From the NCBI RefSeq assembly GCF_902652985.1, contig NC_047016.1:41540001-41604000 (forward strand): a DNA stretch of 64,000 nt, read 5' to 3'. Under the pieces are notes generated by a model that worked only from the letters and a program-made list of their open reading frames with translations, was not told the origin of the DNA and ran no database searches. Position numbers and translations under genes: made by a program. Shown here piece after piece: positions 17,290 to 50,476 of this stretch; within the stretch, counting starts at the first letter, position 1, and the number at the start of each line of letters is the position of its first letter. Origin of the DNA: Pecten maximus (Eukaryota).

Positions 17290-18590
17290 CAGGACTAGAT
17301 ACACCTACTGTAAGGCTAGATACACGTACGGTAAGACTAGATACATGTGCTGTAAGACTAGATACATGTGCTGTAAGACTAGATACACGTGTTGTAAGAC
17401 TAGATACGCGTACTGTAAGACTAGATACACGTACTGTAAGACTGAATAAACGTGATGTAAGACTATATACACATGCTGTAAGACTAGATACATATGCTGT
17501 AAGACTAGATACACGTGATGTAAGACTATATACACATGCTGTAAGACTAGATACATGTGCTGTAAGACTAGATACACGTGATGTAAGACTAGATACATGT
17601 GCTGTAAGACTATATACACGTGCTGTAAGACAAGATACACCGATATAAGACTAGAAACACGCACTGTAAGACTAGAAACATGTGCTGTAAGACTATATAC
17701 ACGTGCTGTAAGACTGGATACACGTCCTGTAAGAGTACATACACGTGCTGTAAGACTAGATACACGTACTGTAAAACTAGATACACATGCTGTAAGTCTA
17801 GATACATGTGCTGTAAGACTAGATACACGTGATGTAAGACTAGATACACGCCCTGTAAGACTATATACACGTGCTGTAAGACTATATACACGTGCTGTAA
17901 GACTAGATACACCGCTGTAAGACTAGACTCACGCACTGTAAGACTGGATACACGTACTTTAAGATTAGAAACACGTACTGTAAGACTAGATACACGTACT
18001 GAAAGACTGGATATCATACTGTAAGACTAGATACGCGTGCTGTAAGACTAGATACACGTACTGTAAGACCAGATAATCGTACTGTACGACTAGATACACG
18101 TACTGTGAGACTAGATACGCGTGCTGTAAGACTAGATACACGTACTGTAAGACCAGATACTCGTACTGTACGACTAGATACACGTACTGTAAGACTAGAT
18201 ACACGTGCTGTAAGACTAGATTCACGTGCTGTAAGCCTAGATACATGTGCTGTAAGACTAGATACATGTGCTGTAAGACTAGATACACGTGCTGTAAGCC
18301 TAGATACACGTGTTGTAAGACTAGATACATGTGCTGTAAGACTAGATACATGTGCTGTAAGACTAGATACACGTGCTGTAAGCCTAGATACACGTGTTGT
18401 AAGACTAGATACACGTGCTGTAAGACTAGATACACATGCTGTAAGCCTAGATACACGTTTGTAAGACTAGATACACGTGCTGTAAGACTAGATACACGTA
18501 CTGTAAGACTAGATACACGTGCTGTAAGACTAGATACACGTACTGTAAGACCAGATACTCGTACTGTAAGACTAGATACACGTGATGTAA
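17290..18590. repeat. 21-bp minisatellite (~60 copies)
   Basis: Consensus GCTGTAAGACTAGATACACGT. It generates the spurious 7-aa periodic ORFs in the track. Confidence 0.95.
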
Positions 18591-21845: not shown

Positions 21846-24022
21846 ACAAGAGGCCCAGAGGGCCTGTATCGCTCACCTGGTTTCATGAGATATTTGCCAC
21901 TGGTATTGCTATGTCAATATATCATAGGCATTTTATATGGTTACATGAACATTGTTTTTATTGTAATTCTAACAAGAGATCCCAGAGGGATCTTGGCGCC
22001 CACCATTGAATGATCTTTATAGGTTCCATGTCAGATTGATCTTTTCTCTACTTTTCCCTTCCTCTAAGTCTTACTAATCTGTGTAAATTCAGAAACAGCC
22101 CTCTAGTACTTTTCAAACAAGGGGAACCTATATATAAAATTTAAGATTTAGCGATAATGGCTGTCTGTCGGCCATGTTGTTTTCGGATTGGTCCCAAAAT
22201 GCAACACCAGGGACCAAGGGGAACCAACATATGAAATTTGAGAAAGAACCCTTCAGTACCTTCTATAGCGATAACAAACTTCAATTGTCAAAATCCAAGA
22301 TGGCTGCCTGTCAGCCAGGTTGTTTTCTGACTGGTCTCAAAATTCAATATGCATAACTAGGGACAGAGGGGAACCTAATAATAAAATTTCAGAAAGATAT
22401 CTTCAGCAATTTCTGATAAATAGCGATAACAAACTTCAATTGTCAAAATCCAAGATGACTGCCAGTCGGCCATGTTGTTTTCCTATTGGTCCCAAGATGC
22501 AATATGCAGAACAACAGACCAAGGGGAATTTAAAAAAAAGTCTGAGAAAGATCCCTTCAGTACTTTCTGAGAAATAGCGATAACAAACTTCAATTGTCAA
22601 AATCCAAGATGGCTGCCTGTCGGCCATGTTGTTTACCGATTGGTCTCAATATGCAATATGCTTAACTAGGCACCAAGGGGAACCAACATATGAAATTTGA
22701 GAAAGATCCCTTCAGTACTTTCTGAGAAAAAGCAATAACAAACTTCAATTGTCAAAATCCAAGATGGCTGCCTGTCGGCCATGTTGTTTTCCGATTGGTC
22801 TCAAAATGCGATATGCATAACTAGGCACCAAGGGGAACCTACATATGAAATTTGAGAAAGATCCCTTCAGTACTTTCCGAGAAAAAGCGATAACAAACTT
22901 CAATTGTCAAAATCCAAGATGGCTGCCTGTCGGCCATGTTGTTTTCAGATTGGTCTCAAAACGCAATATGCATAACTAGGCACCAAGGGGAACCTTCATA
23001 TGAAATTTGAGAAAGATCCCTTTAGCACTTTCTCAGAAATAGCGATAACAAACTTCAATTGTCAAAATCCAAGATGGCTGCCTGTCGGCCATGTTGTTTT
23101 CCGATAGGTCTCAAAATGCAATATGCATAACTAGGCACCAAGGGGAACCAACATATGAAATTTGAGAAAGATCCCTTCAGTACTTTCTGAGAAATAGCGA
23201 TATCAAACTTCAATTGTCAAAATCCAAGATGGCTGGCTGTCGGCCATGTTGTTTTCCGATTGTTCTCAAAATGCGATATGCATAACTAGGCACCAAGGGG
23301 AACCTACATATGAAATTTGAGAAATATCCCTTCTGTGCTTTCTGAGAAATAGCGATAACAAACTTCAATTGTCAAAATCCAAGATGGCTGCCTGTCGGCC
23401 ATGTTGTTTTCCGATAGGTCTCAAAATGCAATATGCATAACTAGGCACCAAAGGGAACCTACATATGAAATTTGAGAAAGATCCCTTCAGTACTTTCTGA
23501 GAAATAGCGATAACAAGAATTGTTTACGGACGGACGGACGGACGACAGACCACGGACGCAGGGCGATTTGAATAGCCCACCATCTGATGATGGTGGGCTA
23601 AAAATGTCAATTAAGCCAAATTGATCCCTTTTGGCCCCGCCCCTCAGCTCCCCGGGGGGTCATCCCCACCAATTGTACAATTTTGAATCCCCACCCCATA
23701 GTAATGCTACCAAGCAAATATGAGCGATATCCATTGCTCGGTTTCAGAGAAGAAGTCGTTTATATCAAAATAGCTAAATAGACTCCTTTTGGCCCCGCCC
23801 CAGAGGCCCCCAGGGGGTCAGCCCCATCATTTGTACAATTTTGAGTCCCCTACCCATAAGGATGCTTCTGACCAAATTTGGTGAAATTCCGATCAGCGGT
23901 TATGAAGAAGAAGTCAAATAAGTCAATTGTTGACGGACGGACGGACGGACGGACGACAGACCGACGACGGACGCCACGGTATGGCATAAGCTCACCTTGG
24001 TCCTTCGGACCAGGTGAGCTAA
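21846..24022. mobile_element. HINE-type non-autonomous Helentron element (outer member of a nested pair)
   Basis: ACAAGAGGCCCAGAGGGCCT palindrome and subterminal GCTCACCTGG at one end. Internal ~160-bp repeats (TTTTGGCCCCGCCCC...). (GGAC)n microsatellite and terminal AGCTCACCTTGGTCCTTCGGACCAGGTGAGCT hairpin at the other end. Confidence 0.8.
21971..23604. mobile_element. HINE-type element carrying ~9 copies of a ~155-bp satellite, nested inside the outer HINE
   Basis: AACAAGAGATCCCAGAGGGATCTT palindrome and GCCCACCA subTIR. Tandem unit AGCGATAACAAACTTCAATTGTCAAAATCCAAGATGGCTGCC... with ~155-bp period (22268, 22422, 22577 ... 23506). (GGAC)n and terminal TAGCCCACCATCTGATGATGGTGGGCTA hairpin. 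Inserted into an A/T run with no TSD. Confidence 0.85.
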
Positions 24023-25149: not shown

Positions 25150-28100
25150 TCAGTGAGGCCTGCCCACAAATGAGTCCGAGTTATGTCTAAATCTCTTCAC
25201 ATTCTTGTTACTAGGCCGAAGTAGTTCCTGGATATGTTGTACAATCAGGTCAATTGCCACTGGAAATAGAAAAAGAAAATATATTAAACTTCTCCCTACC
25301 CGACATAAATCACATATAGCAAGACATGGAGGCCTGACATTAGCTCCATATTTTCTCCCAAGCTATGAGGGAAAGAGCCAAAAAAAACTCTCCTGTTTGG
25401 GGTTGAAGGAGTGAATCTCAACTCTTTGTGAAAAGTTTTAAGTTGAAAAACAGTCTAGTTTCGGTCAACTCAAGAATCTTCTCTCTCCAGTTGAAGTACT
25501 CCTGTCCCATTCATATGGGGAAAATCTAATCATCTCACTACAGGGTTCAGGGGAGAACAATTATACATGTTTAACACTATAGCAACAATAAAATATGTCA
25601 TCACAGCAACACTTCAATAAAATAGTTTCAATAGGTCTCTACATAATACGTCAACTTTGCATAATTATACATATGTTATCAATAATGTAATATTCAAAGT
25701 TCTTATATACAGCTAAATCACAGCAATATAGCTGTCTGAAAGCAGTTCACAAATTATCATAAGGAGCTACCAGTCAATTTCTTTCTCATATCAATGTGGG
25801 GCATTCAGCCAGAGCTGTGATTCAATGCTAACATCTTGCACACGACCTTTTTTGGGCTGCCTTATCACACATACTCATTTACATCTGAGTCTACTGGAAC
25901 ACGACCAAATAATGCATCTTGTTCACAGATACAAAACAGTGCCTGTCTCTGCACTCAAACTAGTGACAGCCTATCATCCTACCACTGTGCCTCTGTGATA
26001 AGAGGGTACATAGGATAAGATTAAAATAATCATTTATTTTGTTCGGAATAGGAACCTCAACCCTTGTGGCCAGATCCTGTCAAATTGTCACATACTCAGC
26101 AAGCCCCATGTTTGTCATTTTAAGTATCTGCCTTCCTTGGCCTAGATTCCAAAGCTCAAACCTAAATGAGCGAAAGAAAGATTTAGATTCTGGTTGTTAA
26201 TTAGTCTCTACCTGTGTTATCAGCTCCTCGTGGTATTATGACATCAGCATACTTTTTTGTCTGAAAAAAAATAACACCAAGTGTTAATTTGATATCAAGT
26301 ACATGCATGTATCTTAATATCTATACACTGAAATAGTCTTGTTTTACTGTATAGAAAAGAATGCAAAATATTAAGATTGTGAAAAAGTGCTTCGGGCAAG
26401 AAAAATAAAGATTGCATTTCCATTCTGAGCAGAACAGAAATGATACTTGTATTGCTTGCTATTTTCATTCCCATTAGGAAATAAATGATAGACTATGATT
26501 AGATTCTAGATTTTAGATTCAATAATTAAACATGTCAATAGATATAGAGTCCCTATTAAACAAGGATACTCATAACTGATTTCAGGCAAAATTCATCCAG
26601 ACATACGGGACAAGAAGTGTTAACACAATGAGCAGAAAAAATGAATACAACACCATAGCATAATTTCACTAGTGTTTTGGATCAGGTGAGCCAAAAATCA
26701 AACCCATATCTTTTCTTCACAATGAATAGTTCGAACAAATAAAACAATAGTTCCCATGTTATGTAAAAACAATTAAAAGAAACAAAACGAAAATTCAGAA
26801 AAAAAGTTTTGTTAACATAACTTACAGGTAAACAGAATTCCTCAAAGGCAGGTTTTACTAGTGTTGTGTACTGGTGAAGGATTTGCTCTATGTCACGTCC
26901 TCTGTCACGCGTATCTCTTAATACTGTAAGACAAAAAAAATGTATTTATATTTATCAACATTTCTTGCAACAGGAAACAAGCATACTAGGTAATACAAAA
27001 GCAATATATGTCACTTACCAGCAAGTTTTATATATTTTGTATCTTCCTTTGACAGTCTAAAATCTAGACCTGAGTTGCTAGTTAATAATCTCTAGTAGAC
27101 AGTACCTTTCCTGAATAGTATATGGTGTCTTCTCACATAGCCAACATTCTGAATTTTGAGGTATACAGGTAAGGTATTTTGTTGGCCAAGTGATACTAAG
27201 TGTGAAAGGTAGAACTAAGTGAGAATGAACGGGTGTATCTCTGAACGCCAACATTTTGAATTTACCTGTAGGGCAGTTTGTTTTGATAGTGATTATAGTC
27301 TTTTTCCTAAAAGGAGTCTCAATGCCAACATGTAAATTTACCTGTAAAAATTACCTGATGATACTTACCTGGAGGTTAAATTAAGGATTTATAACCAAAC
27401 ATAATGCATTTATATGTATATCTAAAATATTCATTTTATCTGATATCTAATTTAAAAATGGCAATATAATATTATATGTGTGAAAATTATTGTATGTCCG
27501 GTTTTTTTATTTTTTTTAAAGGACATTTTTAATGCATAAACACATAAGATCCATTCCAACAGATATGATTTACACTTATCATCATCATCATCATCTTTCT
27601 AAAATATTTTGATTTATTTTCCATAGGTATATAAGTGATAATGCCCTGACGCTTGGTATCACATGGCCCTAACACATAATTGACCGTTTACATAACCAGA
27701 ATTTATAGATCTGCTTCCAGAAACATTTGAAAAACTCTGAAGTAAATCCATCCGACCCGGGGCCCTTATTATTCTTCATGTTTTTAAGTGTTGCAGCTGC
27801 CTCATTCAAAGTTATCATACCTTCTAAACAAGTTGCCTCTTCTTCATTTAATTCAGGAATATCATAATTTTCCCACTATAAACCCCATATAATTGTTTGT
27901 ATGAAGATTAAACCTCATGTAAAATAGCCCCTTGTTCTGTTATTATTTCCCCATTATCTCGCTGTAACTTTGGAACTACTTTTGACATAAAGTTCCTATT
28001 TTCTAGACTGTAAAAACAATATGTTGCTTTTTTCACCTTCCTCAATCCATAATGCTTTTGCCCTTATTATACTTCCCTTAATTCTATTTACTAAAATATT

Positions 28101-31100
28101 CTCTTATTTTTTCTTACTCAATTTTCCCTAATCTCCATTATTCTGACTTTCCATCTGCTGCATTTCATCTCTGAGATTGTTTTCACTTAACCTGCTTAGG
28201 TTTTTTTTAAAGATGTGTACAAAATTGTTTTTCCTATAATTTCAATAGCTGATTGTCTTTAACTAATTGTAAATATCTGTCTGGAATATTATTTATCATT
28301 TTAGGATTGTAAATAGGAAGACAATAATGGGCTTTTATTTCTTTTAGGGTATTATTTATGATATCAAGATAATTTTGGTCATGTAACAGTGAACTATTAA
28401 ATTTTCACAAACCTCTACCTTTTTTAAACTCGTTATATTTTATGTAATTTCTGGTAAGGAATGGTCAGATCTGTAAACGGAATATATGCATGAATCAAAA
28501 ATACTTGGTTATAAGCTTACAGATACTAAAATAATAGAGTATTACCTTACAAATACTAAAAAAATTGAGTCTTGCTTTTTCTTGGTCTACTCTTCTGACA
28601 TGTATTTCTTGAAATATCAGGATGTTGCTCTCTGAAGACATCAACTAAATTAGAATTCACTGAGTTTGTATTACTAAGAAAAAGAAGGATTTTGACCGGT
28701 ACCGGAGTAATACTTATAGTAAACAGTGTCTTCGAGTAATCCGAGTTCAGGTTAATAAATTTTGACTGTAAGTGATTATAAAAATCTTCAAAAGTTATAA
28801 ATGGCGTTTTGCTCTTGCATTTTTTAAAAATTTTACTACTATTAAAAAAAAAACAAAAAAAGGGTTTTTGCCGTAGGTGCTCCAGCATATCGCCCTCAAA
28901 CTGGCTATATTGCCTTTGTTGAGAGGTACATGTACATGTATATTCATTTTTAACTTTCTTTATATACATTTATGTTTCAGATATTTAAACTTTAATGCAT
29001 GCATGTATGTTGTAAGAAAATAGGGGAAAATACAATTCTGTATGCCGCGTGGAACACAGGTAAATCTCAGGTGACTGTACAGGTAAAAAAGACAACTTAT
29101 ATGAAGCAGTATATAATTGCCTTCCCATTGTTTCCTGAAACAACACCTATAGCTACCTATTGTTAAAAAAAATGTTGGCGTTCAGAGAACACCCCGAATG
29201 AACCGTACCTCATTATATGAGTACATAGACTTGTAGAACGAATATTCATACCCTGCCTACACTGCTCTCCGGCAGGACGACGACCATCTGTCAGAAATTG
29301 TCCGTCCGTCGTCCAGAGCTACGTTATCGCAGCTAATAGACTTGATGCATGGCTGACTACACCTTTCCAGGACAGCCTGGTGTCTAGACCTGGTTGTTAG
29401 TATATAACCCTGATACATGACTATACCTCTGGACAGCCTGGTGTCTAGACCTGGTTGTTAGTATATAACCCTGATACATGACTATACCTCTGGACAGCCT
29501 GGTGTCTAGACCTGGTTGTGAGTATATAGACCAGATATACCCGACTATACCTCTGGACAGCCTGGTGTCTAGACCTGGTTGTTAGTATATAACCCTGATA
29601 CATGACTATACCTCTGGACAGCCTGGTGTCTAGACCTGGTTGTGAGTATATAGACCAGATATACCCGACTATACCTCTGGACAGCCTGGTGTCTAGACCT
29701 GGTTGTGAGTATATAGACCTTATACATGACTATACCTCTGGACAGCCTGGTGTCTAGACCTGGTTGTGAGTATATAGACCTTATACATGACTATACCTCT
29801 AGACAGCCTGGTGTCTAGACCTGGTTGTGAGTATATAGACCTGATACATGACTATACCTCTAGACAGCCTGGTGTCTAGACCTGGTTGTGAGTATATAGA
29901 CCTTATACATGACTATACCTCTAGACAGCCTGGTGTCTAGACCTGGTTGTGAGTATATAGACCAGATATACACGACTATACCTCTGGACAGCCTGGTGTC
30001 TAGACCTGGTTGTGAGTATACAGACCTGATACACGACTATACCTCCGGACAGACTGGTGTCTAGACCTGGTTGTGAGTATATAGACCTGATACATAATTA
30101 TACCTCTGGACAGCCTGGTGTCTAGACCTGGTTGTGAGTATACAGACCTGATACACGACTAAACCTCTGGACAGCCTGGTGTCTAGACCTGGTTGTGAGT
30201 ATACAGACCTGATACACGACTAAACCTCTGGACAGCCTGGTGTCTAGACCTGGTTGTGAGTAGATATCCCAGATACACGACTATACCTCTGGACAGCCTG
30301 GTGTCTAGACTTGGTTGTGAGTATATAACCCTGATACATGACTATACCTCTGGACAGCCTGGTGTCTAGACCTGGTTGTGAGTATATAGACCCGATACAC
30401 GACTATACCTCTGGACAGCCTGGTGTCTAGACCTGGTTGTGAGTATATAGACCAGATACAAGACTATACCTCCGGACAGCCTGGTGTCTAGACCTGGTTG
30501 TGAGTAGATATCCCAGATACATGACTATACCTCTGGACAGCCTGGTGTCTAGACCTGGTTGTGAGTATATAGACCTGGTACATGACTATACCTCTGGACA
30601 GCCTGGTGTCTAGACCTGGTTGTGAGTATATAGACCCGATACACGACTATACCTCTGGACAGCCTGGTGTCTAGACCTGGTTGTGAGTATATAGACCTGG
30701 TACATGACTATACCTCTGGACAGCCTGGTGTCTAGACCTGGTTGTGAGTATATAGACCTGATACATGACTATACCTCTGGACAGCCTGGTGTCTAGACCT
30801 GATTGTGAGTATATAGACCAGATACCCGACTATACCTCAGGACAGCCTGGTGTCTAGACCTGATTGTGAGTATATAGACCTGATATACCCGACTATACCT
30901 CTGGACAGCCTGGTGTCTAGACCTGGTTGTGAGTATATAGACCTGATACACGACTATACCTCTGGACAGCCTGGTGTCTAGACCTGGTTGTGAGTATACA
31001 GACCACATATACACGACTATACCTCTGGACAGCCTGGTGTCTAGACCTGGTTGTGAGTATACAGACCACATATACACGACTATACCTCTGGACAGCCTGG

Positions 31101-34100
31101 TGTCTAGACCTGGTTGTGAGTATATAGACCTGATACACGACTATACCTCTGGACAGCCTGGTGTCTAGACCTGGTTGTGAGTATACAGACCACATATACC
31201 CGACTATACCTCTGGACAGCCTGGTGTCTAGACCTGGTTGTGAGTATATAGACCTGATACATGACTCTACCTCTTGACAGCCTGGTGTCTAGACCTGGTT
31301 GTGAGTATATAGACCAGATATACACGACTATACCTTTGGACAGTCCGGTGTCTAGACCTGGTTGTGAGTATATAGACCTGATACATGACTATACCTCTGG
31401 ACAGCCTGGTGTCTAGACCTGGTTGTGAGTATATAACCCTGATACATGACTAAACCTCTGGACAGCCTGGTGTCTAGACCTGGTTGTGAGTATATAGACC
31501 TGATACACGACTATACCTCTGGACAGCCTGGTGTCTAGACCTGGTTGTGAGTATATAACCCTGATACATGACTAAACCTCTTGACAGTCCGGTGTCTAGA
31601 CCTGATTGTGAGTATACAGACCTGGTACATGACTAAATATTTCAACAGCTTGGTGCCTTGACCTACTTTTGAGTATATCTAGACCGGGTTGAGAGTAAAT
31701 CTAGACCCAAATTGTGTGTATATTTAGACTTAATTGTGACGCCTGGGTGTTAATGCTATAGACCAGAGATATGACTTTACCTCTCCTGGACAGTCTGGTG
31801 TCGGGATCAGTGTCAACAAAAAGTTTCATGTGGAACATGTCTCTTATTTCCTTCAGGTAGAAAACAAGGATTCCTTCAAATAAAACTACATCAGCAGGGT
31901 ATATTGTCTGTGATTCTTCATCTCTGCAAATGAAAGTTGGATAACTTTGAGGTTGAAGAAAGCTTTTCTTACGATTTTTCATTTAACAACAGATACTAAA
32001 ATGAAATCAGAAATCTCATACATGTGGTTAGAAAAGAGACTGTAAATTTTGAAAAACAAAATATAAAACAATGATCAAGTTACCAAATAACATCAAAGAA
32101 AGCACATATGAAAACATATTCATAGAGGAAATATTGGGCACATGATATAGTAATGTAGCCCGAGTTTCCTCTGGCCCTGACACCAGACAGAGGAAACCCT
32201 GGCTAATAATTATGGTGAATTAACTTAAACAAATTTAAACTACTAAGCTTTACCTGCTGTTCCTCACATAGTTGTAATTTGGTATATGTACAGTCTTTCC
32301 TTTCAAAATGTCTCTGATGGTTTTTATCATGTAATCATGATCAAAGGCATCTGAAATGATAATAAAATATCTGGTACTATTACTACTACTATATATATAC
32401 TCCCGGTCATCCACTTTGTCTAAAACCATAATGGCTTATCATTAAACAAGTGACTTAATATGAAACAATGTTTTTTTTTTAATTATAAAAATGAAAATAA
32501 ATATACACTTAAATATCACAACATTGGAGTCTCAAAGCAGTTCACAAATTATTATCCGTGGCTATATCTTTATTGGGCCTATTTTTGCCTATTTGATAAT
32601 TGATTTCTCTAAAATAAATGATAAATTATTGCTGATATATGATACAATCTATGATGAGCAGGGTAGCAAATGATTGCTGTTACTGATTCAATTTGTCCTG
32701 ATCATGATCAGTCATGACATGGACTACTGTCTTAATACAATGTAAAAACTGAAAATATAACTGGAGTTACTTCCCCTTACAGATAAACTATTTTACATGA
32801 CATTTCCAGCACTACCCTATTACATACTCATTTACAGCTGCACAGAGTCGACTGGAACACAACAGAGTGAAGTATTTTGTTGAAGGATAAAACACGGACA
32901 GCAGCTTTGCTGAGATTTGAGCTTGTAATACTTTGATGACCAGCCGATCATCCTACCATTTGACCATTGGGCCTCTGTGTGAAGTTAGAGACTTATGTGT
33001 GATTATTCCATACATTAAATAGTCGAACACTATTATTAGCTAAAACAATAAACTGAACATCCACCTTAATCCACAACAACAGGAGCAGTACTTAAGTAAC
33101 AGGTCAGCATACATGGATATAGAAATATGTAGCTTCTCCTTCTTTTTATATCTTATAGGTTAATTATTACCTGGGTGATCAAAGTTGAACTCGCCACGGA
33201 GAGCCCTTCTCTTCTCATCCTCGTTAAGACTTCTGTAAAATGAATCCTGGCTTATGATAACGACCTGTCTCTGATTATCATCCACCTCTGTTTGACCAAG
33301 CTGTTGCATTATCTTGGCACATACTGATGACTGGAACACACAAAATAAAATAGACAATTAAACAAGTGATTGGTGAAAGGGGCCACCCAGGTCCTTATAA
33401 AGATCAAGGGACATCAACATTTTAACAGTTTATTGTACCACTGACTGGCAGTATATTTAGGGGATAGTAAGTTGTTTTGAGTGGCTATACTGGCGATTAG
33501 AACATGAAATTTGGTTTGAACTCGAGACCGATAGGTCGAGAGTTTAAACCAAATTTCATGTTCTAATCGCCAGTATAGCCACTCAAAACAACGTACTATC
33601 CCCATTCTAACACGTTTACGATCGCATATATTTAGAAACATTGTTTTACAGTGCTACAAGTACGCTGTTAAGTACTCTGTGACCTCCGTTAGTGACGTGT
33701 CATACTGTGGCGGATTGACCAATAAGAGAGAAGCTATCAAAGTCGGTCAATTGGCCACGCCCATACTGGCGAGAGCTCGGTCTGTATGTTAACGAAGCGG
33801 GGTATTTGGATTGTTGTGAAAGTCCTGTTTCCGAAGATTTAAAGACATATTTGGATTTACGCAGTATGCTTAACGACATGTGCATTTTAACAAAGTCAGG
33901 GTTGATGTGTTTCTACAGGCTCAACCGTTATGTGAAATTGTGTGCACTTGTTCCATTTCATTTCGGATTTTACTTGACCTTAGATGCTTACACACGGACG
34001 AAATGAACGTTTCAATCAATAAATGACGGTAAGAATGATGTTAACGATTTTTGTTCAATTTATTAAGTTAATTCATTCTATTCGATTTCTTCACTTTCGA

Positions 34101-35681
34101 TTACAATATCACGGGTCATCAATCATAAATGGTGCAGAGTGTTGAATTTCGCTACGAGTCGAACTTGACGCCATATTGTTTTGATTAGAAACGGGGCGTG
34201 GCTTAACACGATATGTCATGGTTCTATCGCAGATTAGAAGTCGGTCCGCAACCAATCAAAACACGCGTTGCAAACGAATCGTGTTAGAATTTACAATATG
34301 CTAACACAATAAGGCTTTCACAGGTTATCATGTGAAATAATCAACCATGCTTAAATGTCAAATATTATCTCAGTAAATATGAAAGAGGAGATCAACAGGA
34401 TCTATTTTCATTTTAAGTTCGAAATTGAACAACTGATAAAGTATCATATATTTAATAGTTCACAAACTAAACCCTTCAGGACTCTAAAGTCAGAAGAAAT
34501 CTTAGTTATATAAGTCTCTGGTCTGAACTAGTCAGGCACCCTATTCTCTCTATTCTACACTACTCCATCCTTCACAGTTAGGCTTTGTCCACGAAGTCAA
34601 CCACAAGTCCACAACCCAGGTTCTATAGCTCGAAGGATATGCCTCTCAATCTCCTGTGGCTTTCCCCTGGTGTGATCATGATCAATGATGATAGGAGTAA
34701 TGAAAAATACCCTGTCTGCATTGGGGTTCAAACTACAAAATAGTGACCTTCTTGTAGCGGAAATGGGCTTGGGTGAACTCTGGTGACCTGGAGGTAGCTC
34801 AACTGGTAGAGCATCCAGCTAGTGTTCAGAAGTCCCAAGTTCAGATCCTGGTCTGGCCGTGCATTTTTCCTCACCTATTACATTTGACACCCAACTAAAT
34901 ACCTATGGAGGTAGTATTTAAGGTCTTGTTGTGTGTCTTCAGGGTCAAAGACTTTGTTGAAGGAGGAGGAATGTAGCGGAATTGGACTAGGACATCTGGC
35001 TAGTGTTTAGAGGTCCCGTGTTCGAACCCTATTCTGGTCATGCATTTTCCCTCTCCTGTTACACTCTTGCTCTCAAGGCAAACATCCTACCACTAGGCAG
35101 AGACATATAGACATATATAATGTCTCTGCACTAGGCTAGAATAGGGAAAGTCCTCCTAGTCTGAGCTAGTAATAGTAAGGTGAATTATACACTCTCTACT
35201 TTACACTTGTAACAGACTCTAGCTCTAGTCACATGCTGCTTTAATTTGTTAATCTAAGACTAAGGTCATTATACACTCCAAAACAAATACATTTCCAATG
35301 GATTTGTAACAAAATTTAATCGTCATATTTAACAATCATGACTTCAAACTGGCACGACGTGTCTCCAAACAGTTGTTATCCTATCTTGTAATATTAGCAT
35401 ACACGATTTCGAGTCATGCTAGGACCTACTTATTTACAGTAGCTCATGCATGATCATGCAAGTACCCAAATTTCAATGTCCCAACTCAAGATCATAACAC
35501 ACTGCTTAGCATGGAGTATTACGACAACGAAATAAAACAATGGAATTAAATACGAATTTGAGGTCACCTTTCCTGATGCTGTTCCGCCAGCTACACCTAT
35601 CATAAATGGCCGTGGTATTCTATCCATTCCGTTTATCATTTGGTGAATGGACGAATCGCTCACACGAACAGTCGCCATCAT
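25150..35681 (-). CDS. UCK2: Uridine-cytidine kinase (UCK1/UCK2 family), ~256 aa, 7 coding exons
   Basis: Exons 35681-35568, 33330-33171, 32350-32254, 31923-31781, 26923-26826, 26260-26212, 25259-25150 (771 nt, phases consistent). Motifs: [18 protein letters not shown] (P-loop), [69 protein letters not shown], and C-terminal RPH* as in vertebrate UCK1/2. Confidence 0.95.
27231..29195. mobile_element. Non-autonomous TIR DNA transposon with 8-bp TSD in UCK intron 4
   Basis: TIRs GGGTGTATCTCTGAACGCCAACATTTT / AAAATGTTGGCGTTCAGAGAACACCCC. Perfect TSD GAATGAAC at 27223-27230 and 29196-29203. Confidence 0.85.
27530..28550 (-). mobile_element. Degraded L1/Tx1-clade LINE ORF2 fragment
   Basis: Minus-strand remnants YRSDHS (end of endonuclease domain), [41 protein letters not shown] and RQGIIT, with many stops and frameshifts. 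Boundaries approximate. Confidence 0.75.
29366..31700 (-). repeat. ~61-63-bp minisatellite (~37 copies) derived from the UCK exon 4 / intron 4 junction
   Basis: Minus-strand unit GACACCAGGCTGTCCAGAG|GTATAGTCGTGTATCAGGTCTATATACTCACAACCAGGTCTA. True junction GACACCAGACTGTCCAGGAGAG|GTAAAGTCATATCTCTGGTCTATAGCATTAACACCCAGG. Confidence 0.9.
33460..34290. mobile_element. Non-autonomous element with a near-perfect ~65-bp-arm terminal hairpin and 11-bp inverted repeats (Crypton-like architecture) in UCK intron 1
   Basis: Hairpin 33460-33603 (GGGGATAGTAAGTTGTTTTGAGTGGCTATACTGGCG... / ...CGCCAGTATAGCCACTCAAAACAACGTACTATCCCC). ATTCTAACACG at 33604-33614 and CGTGTTAGAAT at 34280-34290. The family name is inferred from architecture only. 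Confidence 0.65.
34753..35063 (+). mobile_element. Miniature LTR retrotransposon (TRIM) with tRNA-like LTRs (Helenus-type)
   Basis: LTR1 34753-34882 (TGTAGCGG...TTACA) contains A-box GGTAGCTCAACTGGTAGAGC and B-box-like GTTCAGATCC. PBS-like TTTGACACCCAAC follows. PPT GAAGGAGGAGGAA precedes LTR2 34972-35063 (TGTAGCGG...TGTTACA, A-box region deleted). Near-4-bp TSD TTCT/CTCT. Confidence 0.75.
35098..35128. mobile_element. 31-bp micro-MITE (hairpin) with 7-bp TSD
   Basis: CACTAGG|CAGAGACAT...ATGTCTCTG|CACTAGG. Confidence 0.7.
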
Positions 35682-36136: not shown

Positions 36137-39100
36137 ACCTTACATATCAATATGAAATGAAATAATGATATTTATTGGTTACAATTAAAACCAATAGACA
36201 TATATCGGTTCATGTGGTGACTAGAATTAATAGTAGAAATAAACAACAGTGGTCTGTAAATAAAATTACCTTATATAGCTACGTATAGATGTATGCCATT
36301 ATACATTCGATAGATGACATAATGGGTTGAAAAATATCAGCTAAAACGTTTACTTAGCTTAATATAATTTTGTATTGTCAAGAATATTTGATCATTTTTC
36401 TGTATTGAATAAGTATAATTTCCCCCATAGCAAAGGTTTTTTTTCAGTTAATATTATATCTAACTGAAATAAAGTATTTTGTCTGATATAATGTTGTACT
36501 TGTCACACGATAGTAAAAAATGGTAAGTACTTTCTACTAACCCACATAATGGACTTTCCTCTGAATTTCTTATGTATAAATGTTGTTTAAAATTACTACA
36601 TTTGAGCCTTAATCTTGTATGTAAGATTTGAAGATTTCTATTTCCAATGTTAAATACAATTTGTAACTTGGGATTATTAGTTTGTCCTTTTGTAAAAAGC
36701 CTTTGATTATACTGACAGACGGATTTTCTCGAATATCAACTGGTAATGAATTCCATAACTGTATTGAGGCATTTAAGAATGAGGTTTTGTAAAACTGAGT
36801 TCAGACTTAGTTCTGCAATTAATAAATTGAGAGTAAATTATTTGAATTTCGTGTATTATTCCTATGACTATCTGATACTTTACCTGGAATAAGATCTGAT
36901 AGATAAAATGGAGTTTTTTCTTGTGATACATTTTATGAAACTGTACAATTTTGTGATTTTCCCGTCTTTTAGATATTTTTTTCCAGCCCACATCTTTATA
37001 CAATAGATTTACACTAGACAATTTTGTAGCACCTATAACTATTCTTGCTGCTTCTATTTGAATGTTTTCTAAATTTTTATACAAGTAATTTGGTAAATTA
37101 TCCTAGACAATATCAGAATATTCTAAAATAGGTCTAATAAAAGCAAAATATATTGTTTGGAGAGAATTCCTATCAAGGGTGTTTTCTTAAATTTCTTAAT
37201 ACTGCTAGTCTTGGTGATACTTTTTTTCAATATATAGTCAACATGTTTATGTCATGTACCATCGTCAGATATCAATACCCCTAAGTGTTTATGAGATTTT
37301 ACACTAGTTACATTTATATTGTTCATAGTGATAGGATCATATATCCCTGGTATAGTTTTCCTGCTAATTAATAACGATTCTGTCTTATCGGGATTGAATT
37401 TTACTAACCACTTATTTGCCCATATATGTATTTTCGAAAGATCCTTATTGATAGTATTGATAGCGAGAGTGCGATTTTCAACTATTATATACAAGGCTGT
37501 ATCATCAGCAAATAATTTTATTTTACAATTTATGTCATTCACAATAACATTTATGTATACGAGGAAGAAAAGAGGTCCTAAGATTGAACATTGAGGTACA
37601 CCTGCTTTGATATTTTGAGTTTCCGAAGAAATATCATTTATTACAACCCTTTGACTTCTGCCAGATAAATAATTTTCACACCAAGCTAGTAATTTCCAAG
37701 ATATGCCCGATTCTTTCAATTTATGGATAAGACCCCTGTGCCAAACACGATCAAAGGCTTTACTAATATCACAAAATACAGCAATAATTTATGTACCCGC
37801 GTCTAAAGCCCTCCCAATATCATTTGTAATGTCTAGCAATTGATTTGTTGCAGAATCCCCAGGTGTGAAGCCTGATTGACAATTTGTAAAAAAAAAAAAA
37901 ATTGTATCTATAAAAAAATTGTAAAAGTGTTTGAAAATACACCTTTCCATTAATTTGCCAACAATACTTATCAAAGATATGGGTCTATAATTTGAAACAG
38001 TAGTTTTATCGCCTTTTTAAAAAACTGGTGTAACATTCGCTATTTTCCATAAAGAGGGATATATACTACAATCGATGGACTTAATTGTTAAATAATTTGG
38101 CCAGAATTGAAATAACAGACTGTGTCTTTGCTGCCTTCATTATTCTTGGACTCATTTTATCTGGACCAGAAGCTTTGGAAATATCTAACATATTGATTGC
38201 ATCTTCAACATCTTGTTCAGTAATATTAATATTTTGAAGTTTTTTTATCAGGGGTATTTACATTACAGGGTGGTGTTATATTAGAATCATCAATAGTAGA
38301 TTGACTAATAAAGTAGGTATTAAAAATATCTGCTTTTTGTTTATTATCTCCATAGTATATATTAGTATGTATCAGCGTTGGTATATGAGATGTTTTGACT
38401 GAAAAAATTGTAAAAGTGTTAATCAATTTCCACCAGTCTCGTGTCGATGTAGACATACATTTTATCTTACTTTATATTTTTAAATGTTCATTTTTTGCTC
38501 TCCTAATAACATCAATACATTTATTTCTTGCCTGTCTAAATTGTAGCCAATGATATGGATTTTGTGTACTTTTAGCTTTCCGATGTAATCGTTTCCGAAC
38601 CCTAATTAATTTTCTAACTTCATTATGCATCCATAGTGGTTCATTTTGCCTTATTGTTACAGTTTTATTAGGAATACACCCTTTTGCAATGTTCAAAATT
38701 GCGGAATTAAAAAACCAAGCGAATTCATCAATTGTTAAATTTTCAAGTGGACTAATCCAGTCTATATCATTCAATCTATCACAAAACATTTTATAATCAC
38801 CATTCTTATATAACCAAATATGCCTTTCGATACTCATATTAAAAGTATTAAGACCAATATGTAAAAAAGTGTAAATAGGGCAGTGATATCTTGTCTCAGC
38901 AGGTAAAAAGGATTCGCCCACAACAACGTCCTTTATAATATTTATATCATTTGTCATAAATATATCTAAACGAGAGGAAGAGTGTTCTGTAAAATGAGTA
39001 GGTTCGTCAACAAATTCAATGAAATTATATCGATACATTATGTCACTGATATGATGCGAATTAGTAGCTAACTGATTTTCATTAAAATCACCTGTAATTA

Positions 39101-39298
39101 AAATATCGTCAGATTTATAATTAGCTACCATATCAATAGAATAATCTATTAAATTCCAAATTTCATTTCCAGAGTTTGGAGGTCTATAAAAAGTTCCCAG
39201 CATAATTATTTTATTGTTAAACTGTAGTTCTATCCAAATGCATTCAAGATTATTTACTTCAAATTCCGAACGACGGATCGCAGTAATACTTTTATCAA

Positions 39299-42200
39299 GT
39301 CTATATCTTTGATAATGGGTAATGACTATATGTCTCGTAGAGTGGCAATCAGTACTTTTTATTCCAAAGCCTATGGTAGATTTATATTGAAATATTCATA
39401 CCTCTTATTCTTCTACTATACATTTTTCTTGTTTTTTTTTTACAAAAAAATTAAAACACAATTTGACCAAGTTTGCAAGCTTATTGAATACGTTTTTGCT
39501 TTCACATCTAAACAATATAGATTTCATGTTAATCTTGCTATTGCTTTTACTACAGCATATGGACATTGCATCAAATCCTGGTCCTGGACCAGGTGAACTC
39601 TTAATTTTTCATTTAAAAATCAGAAGTATACGGAATAAAATCGATTATATAGAAAATTTTGCAGGAGAGTATGATATACAATAATGTAATTTGCCTAACC
39701 GAAACACACCTTGATGCTTCTTTACCGACAAGTGAATTGATTATTGATGGTTTTTACTCCCCTTTTAGACTTGATAGAAATTTTGCAGGGGGTGGTATAA
39801 TGGTATATATAATATTGATGCACTTAAAGTCAATAGATTTGGGCTTGAAGTTATGTGGTTTGAAGTGCTTCTTCCTGAAGGTAAGAAAATCGTTATATGA
39901 ATGGCTTATCTGTCTAATTATCATAATGCTAATCATTTTTGGAATATACTTCGTATCTCTTTAAACTAGCTTAAGACCTTACTGATAATGTTATATTGTT
40001 AGGAGATCTGAATGTAGATTTGTTAACAATTTCTCAATATCATGTTTTTGCAGATATTGTTGATACTTTTAATTTGATTAATGTAATATCGGAACCTACC
40101 CGAGTAGGTGCGACAAGATCAAGTTTACTTGATCCTATTTTATTATCAGATTCTCTTACTTGTATAGACTCTTCTGTTATTGAAACTGATAAAGATTTTA
40201 CTGATCATGAAGCTTGTGTTGCTTATATTGAAGTTCCTTTTAAAATTAAACCTGTTTATAGAAGACGAGTATGGCTATATAAAAGAGGTAATTTTGAATT
40301 ATTTAATAATCTTATCAGGGAATATGATTGGAATACTCTTTGTTTTAAAATTGCGATTCAGTTGATTCTGCAAGTGTACAATTTACCAAAGTTTTCCTTG
40401 ATTTTGCTAATATATGCATACCAAATAAAGATGTTACTATTAGACCCAAAGATAAGCAATGGATGAATTCTGATTTGAGAACAAATATGAGAATACGTGA
40501 AAGGTTGAGAAAAATTGCGATTAATTCCAAGCTTCCAAGGGACATAACAAATTAAAAAAAAAACAGAGGAATAAGGTAAATAACATGAAAAAAATTTGCA
40601 AAATCATTTTATGACAATGTAGGTGATCTCATTGATTATTATTATTCAGGTGATCCTAAAAATTATTGGAAATTAATAAAGAGACTTATAGGTAATTCAG
40701 GGTCAGAATCTATTCCTACTCTTTTAGACCCAACCTCTGGTCATTTATCGGTCGATGATAAAGACAAGTCAAATTTACTAAATGAATATTTTTGTAGTAT
40801 TACTAATATTGATGATGATAATACTGAAGTGCCTATTTTAGAACTGAAAACTAACAGCTTTCTAAATTCTTTATTAGTTACTTCTAATGAAATTTGTGAT
40901 GTTTTAAAAAATTTAAAGCTTGGTAAAGCTTCAGGTGAAGATGGTATAAGTCATCATATGCTTAAATACACTGCTGATACAGTTTGTAAACCACTTGAAC
41001 TTCTTTTTAATTTTACTTTATCTACTTGTATCTTTCCAAATATATGGAAAATAGCTAAAGTTATGCCTCTTTTTAAAAAAGGAGATAGGCATTCTATAAC
41101 AAACTATCGTCCCATATCTCTTCTTTCTACTTTTTCTTATTTTTATAAATGACATAGCTGATAATCTTGAATCAACAGCACGTTTATTCGCTGACGACAC
41201 TCCTCTTATAAAGTCGTCTTCCTCATGTCGTGAAATAGAATTAGTTTTAAACAGAGATTTAGAAAAAAAAAATCAGTGAGCAAAAACTTGGCTTGTTACT
41301 TTTAATCCAAATAAAACTGAGGTAATTTTTATATCAAACTCTGACAATATTGAAGAAAATCTTGATTTAATTTTTGATGGAACCTTTTTAAATTTTAGTA
41401 GTTTTCATAGACATCTTGGAGTCATATTTAATTCAAATGCTAAATGGTCTGACCACATCGATGAAATTTACAAATCAGTACTGAAAAAAATAACGTCTTG
41501 AGGAAAATTAAATATATGTTAAAGAATGATGTTCTTTTAAGAATTTATAAATCATTTATTTTACCTGTACTTGAATATGCATGTGAGGTTTGGGACGGAT
41601 GCTCTCAAGCTGATTCAGAAAAGTTAGAGCGGGCTCAGCGTGAAGCAATAAGAACAATAACCGGGTTACCATCTTATACAAGAAAGGAATATTGATATTT
41701 TGAAACAGAATTGGAACTCGTTTCAGACAGAAGAGCTAGAAGAAAACTTCAATTACTATATAAGATAAACAATAATATGACTCTAAGTCATCTATCAAGC
41801 TTATTACCTCCTTCAGTAGGCGATATTAATCCATACACTTTAAGAAATAAGGACACCTTCAGAATTCCAAATTACCGACTTTCCACTACAACTAACTCCT
41901 TCTTGCCCTCTGCTTTAAAAACCTGGAATAACTTAGACGACAATATTAAATCCTTACCTCTTAATTCTTTTAAACTAGCTCTTTCCCAACCTATCTCTAC
42001 TAGTCTGCCTTGTTACTTTAATTATGGAGAAAGAAAGTTTAACATTATACAAACTAAATTAAGACATCAGTGTAGTTCCCTCAAAGATGATCTTTTCCGT
42101 GTAAATTTAGCACAGGACTCTATTTGTGTAAACTGTGGCAATATTTGTGAAAATGTCCATCATTTCTTTTTTGAGTGTCAGAGATATTTTACTGCCCGTG

Positions 42201-42564
42201 CTGAAATGCTCCAAGCTTTTAATGACTTAAACATACATGTCGATTTAAATTTATTACTTTATGGAAATGAAAACTTGGCTTTGGAAGTAAATTGTTATGT
42301 ATTTGAACATGTGCAGTCATTTATAAAGTCCAGCAGAAGATTTTGAATGTAATATACTTGTATATCTTTATTATGTACATTGCATGTTAAATTAAATTAT
42401 GCAGGTTTTTTTTCTTTTCTTCCCATAAATGTTGATTTTACTATATATTATACCTATGTCATCGTTTGTAAATAATAATATGTTTATTGGAGAAGGCTTT
42501 ATAAGTTGGAATGACTTGTGCCTAATCCCTTTGTTCTTACAATAAAATATGTTTAAAGTAAAAA
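39299..42564 (+). mobile_element. Nested CR1/L2-group LINE, opposite orientation, with internal RT deletion
   Basis: 14-bp TSD AATACTTTTATCAA (39285-39298 and 42565-42578). Motifs LLLQHMDIASNPGP, ICLTETHL, LGDLNVD, KASGEDGIS. NYRPISLLS is joined directly to ...FINDI...LFADDT, so the RT core is deleted. C-terminal CVNCGN...HFFFEC. 3' AATAAAATATGTTTAAA plus A-rich tail. Confidence 0.92.
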
Positions 42565-43669
42565 AATACTTTTATCAACATATACGGCAATACCTCCCCG
42601 CCCACCCTATCTGACCGAGATTTTACAAATGGGCCATGAAATTTAGAATGGGAAAGATCGTCTGATTTTTCCGTATTTGGTGATAACCAAGTTTCAGTAA
42701 ATGATAAAATGTCATATTGATATAGTTCACTAAAATTATGTCTGTTTTTGGTAATAAACTAGTAGTGCACTTCCGATAAGTAGTTTTGGTTTAGAATGGA
42801 TAAATCAGAAAGGGATGGACGTTCGGGACCCGGGTAACTTTCAATATCGCCACAGCGAAGGAGAACTTTTAGAAAACATATCAGAAAAAATATATAACTC
42901 ACAGTAAAAAAAAATCAATAACACATGTAAAAACAAGGTCAGGGTACGATCCATAACGTAAAAGGGAGAAATAAAGACATGAAAATAATATCAGTATATA
43001 GGATACAATATACTTCAAAATAGGAAGTGTATGTACAAGGTGTATAGTATCAGAATATTTATCCAACTTCTTAACAGTACACATGTTTAAGGAATGTTTA
43101 TCAAGTAAGTCTTTTTGTTTGCTCAAAGGTAACTGACTTGACCTCGCATGATACAAACCGATACTGACACGGTAGGAAAAATAATCAACAGGTATTATGT
43201 AATATGATAGGCATAGTAAGGATATCTCCGTGTCCAAATATATTCAGTTTGCAAAAGACGAGGTTCAAGTGAGAAAACATAGTGCCACTGAGTAATAAAG
43301 TAAATAGAGTTTAGCAGTACAAATCACTTCTCAATAGGAATAAGAAGGTACGTTTTATAAGTCACCACAGTACAATAACATAAGTAACAAAACATTAAAA
43401 TTGAAATGAAAATTGTTATATTACATCGGGTAGGCATCTAGTATTGAGGGGGGAATGATTGTAATTTGGCCTGCTGTTTACTAAACACACAGCCATATGT
43501 GTACATTATATCACATGCCCAATAATCACCAGCATGCATATTTGGTGGGTGCAAAATAGCACAATGCACAATGACATTTACATGGCGACGCATGTACATG
43601 CTAGCCATATAGACACACATTCACACAATCACTCACCTACAATAATCATATAGACATCGGCATACATAT

Positions 43670-43872
43670 ACACACATTCATTCATTAGCTCACACATACA
43701 CACATGCATTCATTAGCTCACACATACACACATGCATTCATTAGCTCACATATACACACATGCATTCATCAGAACATCTATACATACATGCATTCATCAG
43801 CACACCTATACACACATGCATTCATCAGCACACCTATACACACATGCATTCATCAGCACACCTATACATACA
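43670..43872. repeat. 28-bp minisatellite (~7 copies)
   Basis: CATTCAT(T/C)AGC(T/A)CAC(A/C)(C/T)ATACACACATG units. Confidence 0.85.
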
Positions 43873-45443
43873 TTAATAATTAGAGACATGGTTGGGTTTA
43901 TTTTGTTTAACGTCCTATAAACAGCTAAGGCGTCTAACGTTACGTTAGATATCTTTTTCTATGTACATTATATATATATATTGTGTCCAGGGACCCGGAT
44001 TTGATATAGACTATTAATGATAGATAATACATACTGTTTATATCTGGAAGATTATTCAGTACAGAACAGTTGTGTATACAATTGTCTTTCACATACTATT
44101 CCTTTTCACAATCATGTTTATAGACTACATGTCGGTAGGGAATAGAAAGCTGTACAATCAAAAACAATTATTGTATGTGTATTTAACCTATAGAATTTTA
44201 TATACTGTTTCATATAGCATAAGCTGGCTTTCTCCTTGTATTTTACACAGCACTACTAAACTTTCGGTAGAGCTATTCTCTCAACGAAAAGTTCACTGTC
44301 TTTATACATTTACTCAACAACAAGTGTACATAAAGTGACTTTATATACAGTACAGGTAAAAATCATAGGTACCCTTGGGTACTGCCCATTACTGGGGGTT
44401 TTGCTGTTCATCACCTCTTAGGGTGTAGTGCACTAATATAGTTTACCTGTAGTTTAAATGTAATGCACTACTGCACCAGGTGTAAAGGTTAGCTCACACT
44501 CCACTGTATTACTGGTACGGAAATGTGAGAGTTGTGTCCCTTCGATAGAAACGTGTTCTCTTCAAAATGTAAAGGAGCTATTGTCGTTCATTGTCATACT
44601 TATATATTATTATACATGTACATCATGATGTTTTTGTGTAGCTTATATTTGATGCAGTTTGGTATGTTGTGAAGGATAAGTTTGATCATTTTATAACGAG
44701 TGAAACATGATCATGATTTTTTTCTCATCATGAACTGTTAAGGATGTACGTTAAAGGAAACTTTTCAAAAGGCGGGGGTCTAGAGTCACCCAGGTCCCCA
44801 GAAACTCTCGACAAAGTGTCGTATTACCAAATTCTGGGAGTTTCTTTTCAGCTTTTTGTTTAATCATCACGTTATTATTTCCCATGATTAACTGTTCTAG
44901 GGTCAAGAAAATAAGACAGGATTGCATGTTAAGAGGGCGTGGGACATTAAAGAAAATAAAACGGGGATCTCAGAGCAGTCCAAGATCAATACGTTTTTAA
45001 ATGGAGTTAATAAAACGATAATATCTGTTGGGATTATCTTTAAAAGTGTTTATGTCCACACAAACTTCTAAGAATGCAAAGTTTTCAGATTACATAGAAG
45101 ACATAAGATCGTTTTCTCTCTCAATTTGTTGCCGTGTATTCTTTGTTTTAGCACCCCGCCTGGATCCGCCTATGACTTGCATACGCGTAGCCAGGTTATT
45201 TTGTATGTGTATGTAGAGAAATGAAATGATGGGTGGATGAGTACCGTATTATAACATACTTTAAGTGTATGTACAATTTAAGCCCGTCATTTCCGGGTGT
45301 CCGGGTACTTAAGTTGTCCTGTTTTAAACGACGAGCCTTGTACAGCATTTAGAATGATAATTTGTGTTGACTTAACCTTATTTTGCACGCTTGGAACTTA
45401 TTTATACATAATCATTACAACAAGATGGCATATATACATATTT

Positions 45444-45884: not shown

Positions 45885-46570
45885 ACTGTATGGTATTACA
45901 AGAAAGATATTGTGATAATATTGTATTACAAGAAAGATATTGTGATAATATTGTATTACAAGAAAGATATTGTGATAATATTGTATTACAAGAAAGATAT
46001 TGTGATAATATTGTATTACAAGAAAGATATTGTGATGTTATTGTATTACATGAAAGATATTGTGATAATATTGTATTACAAGAAAGATGTTGTGATGATA
46101 TTGTATTACAGGAAAAATATCATGATGCTATTGGATTGCTAGAAACATCCAATATTGTGATAATATTGAGTTACAAAAGAGGTGTTGTGATAGTATTGTT
46201 TAACAAGAAAGGTATTTTAATTGTAATGTCATGTAAAAACGTCACTGTGCTGTAATTGTCTTGTAATAATGCATAGTGGGGTATTGTTTTATAAGAATGA
46301 CATTGTGGGGGTATTTTTTGTGTGAAGGCCGTTGAGGGAGTATTGTTTTGTAAGAATACCGTTCGGGGGTATTGTTTTGTAGGAATGACGTTGTGGTTGT
46401 ATTGTTTTAAAAGAATGACATTGCGGGGGTATTATTTTGTAAGAGTGTCATTGTGAGTTTTTTTCTTTTTTTAAAGATATCATTTTGAGGGTTTTTTCTT
46501 TTAAGAATATCATTGTGAGGGTATTGTCTAGTAAGAATATCAATGTGAGGGTATTGTCTTGTAAGAATGA
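45885..46570. repeat. 30-bp minisatellite with a polar decay gradient
   Basis: GTATTACAAGAAAGATATTGTGATAATATT is near-perfect for ~8 copies (45892-46130), then increasingly diverged units continue to ~46570. Confidence 0.85.
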
Positions 46571-49500: not shown

Positions 49501-50476
49501 AAGGACTGTTTGTAGAGTTTGTCAAAATGCATAACCTTGACCCACTTTCAATGTTACAGATGTTACAGACTTCTTCTTAATTGCTGATATGCATAGTTTA
49601 ATTATATTTTGGAAGTAGCACTTAGATGAAAAGTCATTCAGCTTGTTTAAAAGAATGACCTTGGCCTACGTTTGAATTAACGTTATAACTGTATTGTATT
49701 GCACAATTATAACCTTTCGATAAGGTCGATACATGGTTTTATCAATCTGAAAAAATTATCGACCGAGAACGAAAATTATATATTTTGTGATATTATTCTA
49801 TTATTAAAAGTACTTTGTGATACTTATAAAATAAAACATGTACTCAATTAAACAGCATTAAACTTATTAAGCTTGCTTTCAGTACGCACGAATTTTCAAC
49901 GCAATGCAAAAACTTAACTGTAATAAATTACACATACTTTTGTAATAGCATTTTATGATCAAAAACAGATTGTGGTATTATGTACATAATTTCATATCTG
50001 ATCTGTATTTTGTTTCACACAGTGCTATTATGTCATATGTAGTGATGGGCGTGACCTGTTAATGCGTCTCTCTACCAAATATATACCATGTACCCGGAAC
50101 GTGTCTAAAATAAACCTATATCTTCTAAAACACATTCCCGTCAGCTTAAACACATACTTAGGTACAGGAATTTTGATAACTTAAAAGACAAAATAAATTC
50201 AGAAAATGCTTCTAAACTTCAACAGAGTGTCAAAATAAAGTGAAAGACATGGCATTGTAGATTACAGAAGAAATATCCGTAATAAATTTTGTATACTGTA
50301 TACATCTGTATACTGACTAGGAATAGTAGAATTTTTATAGGTTTTTACGAATAAAACATCCTTGTCTATATATAACACCCGTATTACTGCATTCTTTATT
50401 CAAAATGGCTACTTCGTGAGGACATCAGAACGTTTTACACTAGTGTTAAGCTTTTTATAATAGGAAAAAGGACAAA

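Follow-up and report, generated by a model that had tools for sequence, protein, structure and literature searches.

A donor-spanning minisatellite in intron 4 of a uridine-cytidine kinase gene of Pecten maximus, most likely silent in splicing

Intron 4 of a uridine-cytidine kinase (UCK) gene in Pecten maximus contains a long tandem array whose units resemble the end of exon 4 together with its 5' splice site (donor). The gene lies in the 64,000 nucleotides of contig NC_047016.1 from position 41,540,001 to 41,604,000 (hereafter the window, in whose positions all coordinates are given). Two questions are raised by this locus: whether the array arose from the exon-intron junction beside it, and whether the donor-like copies that it carries affect the splicing of the gene. 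An earlier note, made from the letters of the window alone, had proposed the first and raised the second as a possibility. The analysis presented here indicates that the UCK array is a real donor-spanning minisatellite, most likely silent and near-neutral.

The UCK gene is located on the minus strand and was modelled with seven exons and GT-AG introns, yielding an intact joined frame of 255 amino acids (Table 1). The family PF00485 was matched by four of the six exon pieces scanned. Exon 4 ends in codons for DTRLSRR, a motif also found in human UCK2, and the final Arg of the motif corresponds to residue 166 of the human UCK2 chain 1xrj (261 residues), which we take to be a substrate-binding residue. 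The reading of the exon end as DTRLSRR followed by Gly, given in the earlier note, was not upheld, as in the mRNA the last exonic G is the first base of a codon for Val (DTRLSRR-V).

The array was located by Tandem Repeats Finder (TRF) at 29370-31678, with a period of 61, 37.6 copies and 92% matches, and the units were then obtained by splitting. It consists of 36 full units, a terminal part-unit and one decayed lead-in copy, in keeping with the earlier count of about 37 copies of some 61 bp. The full units comprise 28 of 61 bp and 8 of 63 bp, and the 61-mers have a mean identity of 96% to the consensus. Interior units are homogeneous (mean of 4.46 pairwise differences; 25 of 36 distinct), and units lying further apart are no more different than close neighbours (rho 0.04, p 0.35). 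Among the full units, unit 1 stands furthest from the rest, with a mean distance of 7.5 compared with 4.46 overall. The most distal unit had been said to keep an exon-like form 3 nt longer; this was borne out by the terminal part-unit, in which 19 of the 22 exon-like nt (29384-29363) match the exon end. The copies had also been said to follow the true donor. The 37 copies do lie downstream of it in the intron, but a decayed stretch of approximately 140 nt separates them from it. Over 31560-31685 the window sequence is identical to a DNA contig from a different sample, which shows the array edge to be real. The DNA run X4 has zero cover at 31686-31750, and its flanking contig departs at 31751; the decayed spacer (31686-31750) may differ between individuals, and the hole in X4 cover proves nothing.

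In order to address the origin of the array, the consensus unit was aligned to the exon 4/intron 4 junction (31802-31742). Of 57 ungapped columns, 48 are identical, and a gap of 3 nt falls in the exon part; the unit pairs with the last 22 nt of the exon and the first 39 nt of the intron, as the earlier note had roughly outlined. That note had also proposed a comparison with shuffled sequence. The junction alignment scored 66, a value reached by none of 3000 dinucleotide shuffles (mean 18.9, maximum 37). When the two parts were scored separately, the exon part (32) was reached by none of the 3000 shuffles and the intron part (39) by three. A 15-nt core with at most 3 mismatches occurs at 38 sites in the 64 kb compared with 0.41 expected, and these sites are the 37 copies and the exon 4 end, with none elsewhere in the window. 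Furthermore, 70 UCK-homologous loci were drawn from metagenome contigs, of which 40 were examined and 30 dropped as low-identity or partial matches (L032, L037-L063, L067, L069). A GT stands one base past the last codon of the motif in 21 of the 40 loci, some of which look mutually related; the other 19 read on with Val. Since the protein is conserved at the exon end and the intron position is ancient, the direction is from junction to array, and the alignment, together with the conservation of the exon end to human UCK2, supports the earlier proposal that the junction seeded the array by tandem amplification. The 3-nt gap in the units deletes one Arg of the DTRLSRR motif; a substrate-binding role of the last Arg would explain why the coding seed escaped conversion.

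A dispersed satellite or transposon-derived repeat may instead have been inserted beside the exon, the likeness to the junction being due to chance or to secondary conversion. The seed's intron part may be nothing but a decayed piece of the array, the search was confined to the 64-kb window, and the best score elsewhere among 1884 window tiles was 46, in an unrelated 21-bp array (17293-18590). This origin is nevertheless very improbable, given that the exon part surpasses every shuffle and encodes residues common to human UCK2 and that the unit is absent elsewhere in the window. Furthermore, the summed depth of X4 at the array edge is 271, compared with approximately 30-41 for single-copy sequence and 195,676 for a palindromic element in intron 3, summed depth not being copy number. 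An exact 31-nt scan of the metagenome contigs, from which the host is probably absent, returned no matches. The palindromic element itself, of about 55 bp (32150-32205), is also deep in RNA contigs, and its very high summed depth points to a high-copy dispersed repeat resembling a miniature inverted-repeat transposable element (MITE). It was considered as the source of the array and rejected, as it shares only a short word with the unit (by eye) against the 57-column match of the junction.

All 37 copies retain AG/GT at the donor-homologous place (the slash marks the exon-intron boundary), the decayed lead-in copy being without GT, and a second CAG/GT is present in 35 of 36 unit tails; the earlier description of both signals in each unit is therefore accurate, apart from one tail. 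The donor forms comprise 29 GAG/GTATAG, 4 GAG/GTTTAG and 4 single variants, and none of the 37 is identical to the true donor GAG/GTAAAG over -3..+6. The GTATAG form has 5 consensus matches and the true donor 6, with a modelled U1 duplex energy of -6.9 for both; the four GTTTAG copies, units 1 and 3 among them, are weaker at -5.5. Masking of the pseudo-donors by RNA structure was also considered. In predicted structures they are more paired, with a mean unpaired value of 0.21-0.22 compared with 0.39-0.54 for the true exon 4 donor, but the opening energies overlap (copies, mean 6.0-6.9 kcal/mol; true donor, 5.2-6.4 kcal/mol). Among the GT sites of intron 4 outside the array, 9 of 125 have a modelled U1 pairing equal to or better than that of the true donor, and one of them, at 27369, is a perfect consensus, so donor-like sites are not peculiar to the array. 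Four strong donor-like sites are clustered at 27266-27369 on the minus strand, approximately 350-450 nt before the exon 5 acceptor. The first intact pseudo-donor lies 203 nt downstream of the true donor, and its use would create an exon of 346 nt. Read-through from the true donor meets an in-frame stop at 31703-31701, after 27 codons, and thus any downstream donor used by extension yields a premature stop. Transcripts using downstream copies would presumably be removed by nonsense-mediated decay (NMD), leaving the array close to neutral cargo.

Four runs were mapped to 31560-33400, namely three RNA runs from three studies (one recorded as RNA, two guessed) and the DNA run X4. Each of the three RNA runs has a contig in which exons 2, 3 and 4 are spliced together at GT-AG introns and which departs exactly at 31781 and continues for approximately 470-500 letters. 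At the contig level, RNA uses the true exon 4 donor. RNA depth is 0 at 31684-31745 in all three runs, a figure to be read with the loss of rare forms from contigs and the gap of the DNA run at 31686-31750, and depth over 31746-31807 equals exon-only cover. No backward link of exon 4 or of the array edge was present among the 12 joints listed for 31560-33400, a region which takes in the array edge only. The effects on splicing or NMD and the recursive or circular products suggested in the earlier note are not reflected in these contigs, which leave at the true donor in three studies.

Arrays of this kind were also found at other donors. Sixteen donors in the window, six from UCK and ten from two neighbouring genes, were tested for downstream copies of their own junction; the ten were read by eye, several of them being misplaced by 1-2 nt and two uncertain. 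All 300 shuffles were surpassed at two of the sixteen donors, that of UCK exon 4 and one at position 7130. Downstream of the donor at 7130 lie three copies of 49-50 bp made of 27 exonic nt of a Cys-rich exon and the start of the intron, and the first copy, 49 nt downstream, keeps CAG/GTAAAT unchanged. The first donor (7130) and the next exon form an open frame. The gene of this donor also holds a mucin-like exon rich in Pro and Thr (5790-6865). Of the 21 UCK donors in homologous loci, two (L035 and L017, each from another animal) surpassed all 300 shuffles. Locus L035 (1799-1950) has a 49-bp unit starting at the UCK donor (G/GT; one exonic base plus intron) in at least 3 copies, the contig ending inside the array. 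In L017 the array begins 15 nt past the UCK donor, and the donor itself lies outside it. The sequences of both differ from the window unit, which points to independent origins. The L017 gene carries arrays in three successive introns, each beginning approximately 10-15 nt past the donor, and two more arrays upstream. Given that donor arrays recur in a neighbouring gene without a link to UCK function, they were counted in favour of near-neutrality.

Several observations weigh against a silent array. All 24 runs listed were available as contigs, from which rare isoforms are lost and which give no levels, and besides the 12 joints there are 179 loose ends and 2445 pieces in a region that covers the array edge only. 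The continuation of the RNA contigs appears from its length to be exons 5-7, the letters not being displayed. Run X10 (RNA guessed) has array-like contigs with a depth of 47.9 over 31560-31621, compared with 19.1 for its mRNA contig, which is unexplained; divided among 37 collapsed copies the figure falls to approximately 1.3 per copy, a value that would fit pre-mRNA or carried-over DNA. The weakest copies are those nearest the true donor (the lead-in copy without GT, then units 1 and 3), and GTTTAG occurs in two of the first three full units compared with two of the other 33 (p=0.027, post hoc and on copies that are not independent). Finally, human 6-16 and CBS do make use of the pseudo-sites closest to their true donor (PMC1557585).

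Some of these observations would fit a leaky valve, in which a low level of splicing occurs from the nearest intact copies and its stop-containing products pass to NMD, the length or sequence of the array tunes the level of UCK, and selection has eroded the nearest copies. The AG/GT of all 37 copies, most of them equal to the true donor in modelled U1 energy, would fit such use, and NMD would conceal the products. We regard this as unlikely. The three RNA contigs end exon 4 at the true donor, use of the first intact copy would produce the 346-nt exon, and the array of the neighbouring gene retains a perfect donor copy 49 nt downstream. Decay at the edge, which is expected in any tandem array, accounts for the weak proximal copies equally well as selection, and proximal weakening is not claimed here as a sign of selection, its p value being post hoc on related copies. 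Selection had also been seen in the earlier note in the change from GTAAAG to GTATAG. The A-to-T change at +4 is common to nearly all copies and is counted once, as a single event, and it leaves the U1 energy unchanged. Furthermore, GTAT stands behind the homologous exon end in two of 21 other animal loci (L010 and L011, with donors inferred from position), and thus the change need not disable a donor. This claim was accordingly not retained.

The units could also serve as a source of micro-exons. The CAG of a unit tail and the pseudo-donor 24 nt on bound a stop-free, in-frame cassette (GLDTRLSR), whose inclusion by splicing between exons 4 and 5 would duplicate part of the conserved motif. 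The CAG is present in 35 of 36 tails and is preceded by a branch-point-like TACTCAC in most units and by TACTAAC in 3 of 36. Such use is extremely improbable, however, as the array has no polypyrimidine tract (none of its YAG sites is preceded by more than 9 T within 21 nt, compared with 9-15 at the six true acceptors), and the branch-like A is only 8 nt from the AG, closer than is usual in animals. The 12 listed joints, which concern the array edge only, include none of this kind. The three distal units with TACTAAC start at 29630, 29506 and 29445 (minus strand), with the word three bases before the CAG; we take it to be a yeast-type branch-point word.

For the favoured reading of a silent, near-neutral minisatellite, the following course is proposed. 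Approximately 60 bp across the exon 4 donor were duplicated head to tail into intron 4, as the homology shows, probably by slippage or unequal crossing-over. One copy would then have lost 3 exonic nt, gained the GTAAAG-to-GTATAG change, and expanded and been homogenised to 36 units, and the coding seed and two edge copies, as their pattern suggests, would have escaped homogenisation. The first, true donor would win through exon definition and a preference for the most upstream site, with the copies starting 203 nt off, as the experiments on human F7 suggest. A rare product of a downstream copy would include at least 203 nt of intron, meet the stop after 27 codons and probably undergo NMD. Rare leakage from the copies is possible.

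More speculatively, the array may be a length-tunable valve on a gene of nucleotide salvage, whose copies divert a small share of the pre-mRNA to stop-containing forms or to the 24-nt micro-exon, the nearest copies having been selected away; arrays of this kind may reflect a mutational bias at exon ends in the repeat-rich genomes of invertebrates. For such a bias, arrays at 2 of 16 window donors and at 1 of 21 homologous UCK donors elsewhere, arisen independently, may be offered. We consider this composite proposal quite unlikely.

The features of the window are compiled in Table 1, together with the arrays of locus L017. Broken frames at 27650-28400 (UCK intron 4) and 36460-42343 (upstream) presumably represent pieces of long interspersed nuclear element (LINE) endonuclease or reverse transcriptase. 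The arrays at 17293-18590 and 15694-16167 lie approximately 260 and 450 nt, respectively, from the nearest exon ends, and the junctions there are not copied.

Table 1. Positions of the UCK exons, the intron 4 array, other tandem arrays and neighbouring genes (window coordinates unless stated otherwise).
Feature	Position	Strand	Basis or remark
UCK exon 1 (coding part)	35568..35678	-	ATG to AAG/GT; joined frame intact
UCK exon 2	33171..33330	-	PF00485 E=0.0048; RNA contigs join to exon 3 in 3/3 RNA runs
UCK exon 3	32254..32350	-	PF00485 E=0.036; both-side joints in 3/3 RNA runs
UCK exon 4, DTRLSRR codons and G at end	31781..31923	-	PF00485 E=2.9e-8; human UCK2 E=4e-19
UCK exon 4 true donor GAG/GTAAAG	31781/31780	-	Exit point of RNA contigs, 3/3 RNA runs
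UCK exon 5 (phase 1), with the acceptor for exon 4	26826..26923	-	PF00485 E=2.4e-5; frame runs on as VLRD
UCK exon 6	26212..26260	-	Joined frame intact
UCK exon 7, to stop codon	25150..25259	-	Joined frame intact, 255 aa
Seed monomer: exon 4 last 22 nt and intron 4 first 39 nt	31742..31802	-	48/57 ungapped columns match consensus
Decayed spacer and lead-in copy (donor GT lost)	31597..31741	-	Lead-in near 31655-31597; stop at 31703-31701
36 full units, each pseudo-donor 3 exonic nt short	29385..31596	-	TRF and unit splitting
Terminal part-unit, exon-like form 3 nt longer, AAG/GTGTAG	29354..29384	-	Exon-end match 19/22
Second donor-spanning minisatellite	6950-7156 (array 6988-7156)	-	49-50-bp unit, ~3.4 copies
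Tandem array	17293-18590		21 bp
Tandem array	15694-16167		28 bp
Tandem array	22157-23915		155 bp
Tandem array	43655-43873		28 bp
Tandem array	45889-46574		30 bp
Neighbour gene, long single frame with B-box	50450-52171	+	PF00643 E=9e-7
Neighbour gene, death-domain exon	57906-58214	-	PF00531 E=9e-12
Neighbour gene, weak SprT-like exon	14475-14714	+	E=0.007
L017 intron arrays (positions of locus L017)	4160-5018, 5188-5253, 6157-7364

A single locus is of little importance in itself. The UCK array adds a large, clean splice-junction minisatellite and offers a natural substrate for the study of first-donor preference outside mammals. The two arrays of the window and the independent one at L035 suggest that repeats of this type often arise as a by-product in invertebrate genes rich in repeats. 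In that case they would be relevant to the proposal that introns can be gained through duplicated boundaries (PMC3087553), and could lead gene prediction and spliced alignment astray.

The novelty implied in the earlier note does not hold, as the same arrangement has been described in human and amphioxus genes (PMC1557585, PMC3087553, PMC3902484). The matching passages of PMC12783039 and PMC10078293 contained no junction-spanning case, and no UCK minisatellite, mollusc mirage or bivalve intronic splice-site minisatellite was found in the literature searched, outside which most subscription journals fall.

Amphioxus 'mirages' are tandem duplications of exon-intron boundaries in BflGb6, BflGb9, Adh3, TnC and PGBD5 (PMC3087553, PMC3902484). 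Their repeats are imperfect, many keep the splice signals, the interior is homogenised with edge units excluded, and splicing is undisturbed; length instability is also reported. The UCK array resembles them in each of four features compared. Its unit is homologous to the exon-intron boundary of its own gene (score 66, 0/3000 shuffles), head-to-tail copies in the adjacent intron keep the splice signal in 37/37 cases, regular mRNA splicing is retained (3/3 RNA runs, at the contig level), and the interior is homogenised with edge copies excluded. It differs in having 37 copies compared with 3-6 in BflGb6, and in belonging to another gene and apparently another phylum.

Among human genes, donor-spanning minisatellites are described in 6-16 (25 pseudo-sites), CBS intron 13 (15-20 units), LMNB2 and PDGF (PMC1557585), and the UCK array is like them in the number and size of its units. 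LMNB2 and PDGF rely on the true donor alone, and 6-16 and CBS on two further pseudo-sites as well, whereas no pseudo-site was seen in use at UCK at the contig level. In the 37-bp variable number tandem repeat (VNTR) of human F7 intron 7, with 5-9 units, the first monomer spans the exon-intron boundary, and the pseudo-sites are functional yet lose to the most upstream site, so that only the true donor is used (PMC1557585). The UCK array likewise has a boundary-spanning first monomer and donors reiterated in the intron, with only the most upstream donor seen in use. In contrast, F7 has pseudo-sites that directly adjoin the true site and do not differ from it; at UCK none of 37 is identical over -3..+6, the full units are 3 exonic nt short, and approximately 140 nt of decayed sequence separates seed and array. 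Without identical pseudo-sites the array is not strictly of the F7 type. The UCK array is a mirage-type minisatellite, and it is filed as a mirage that works like F7.

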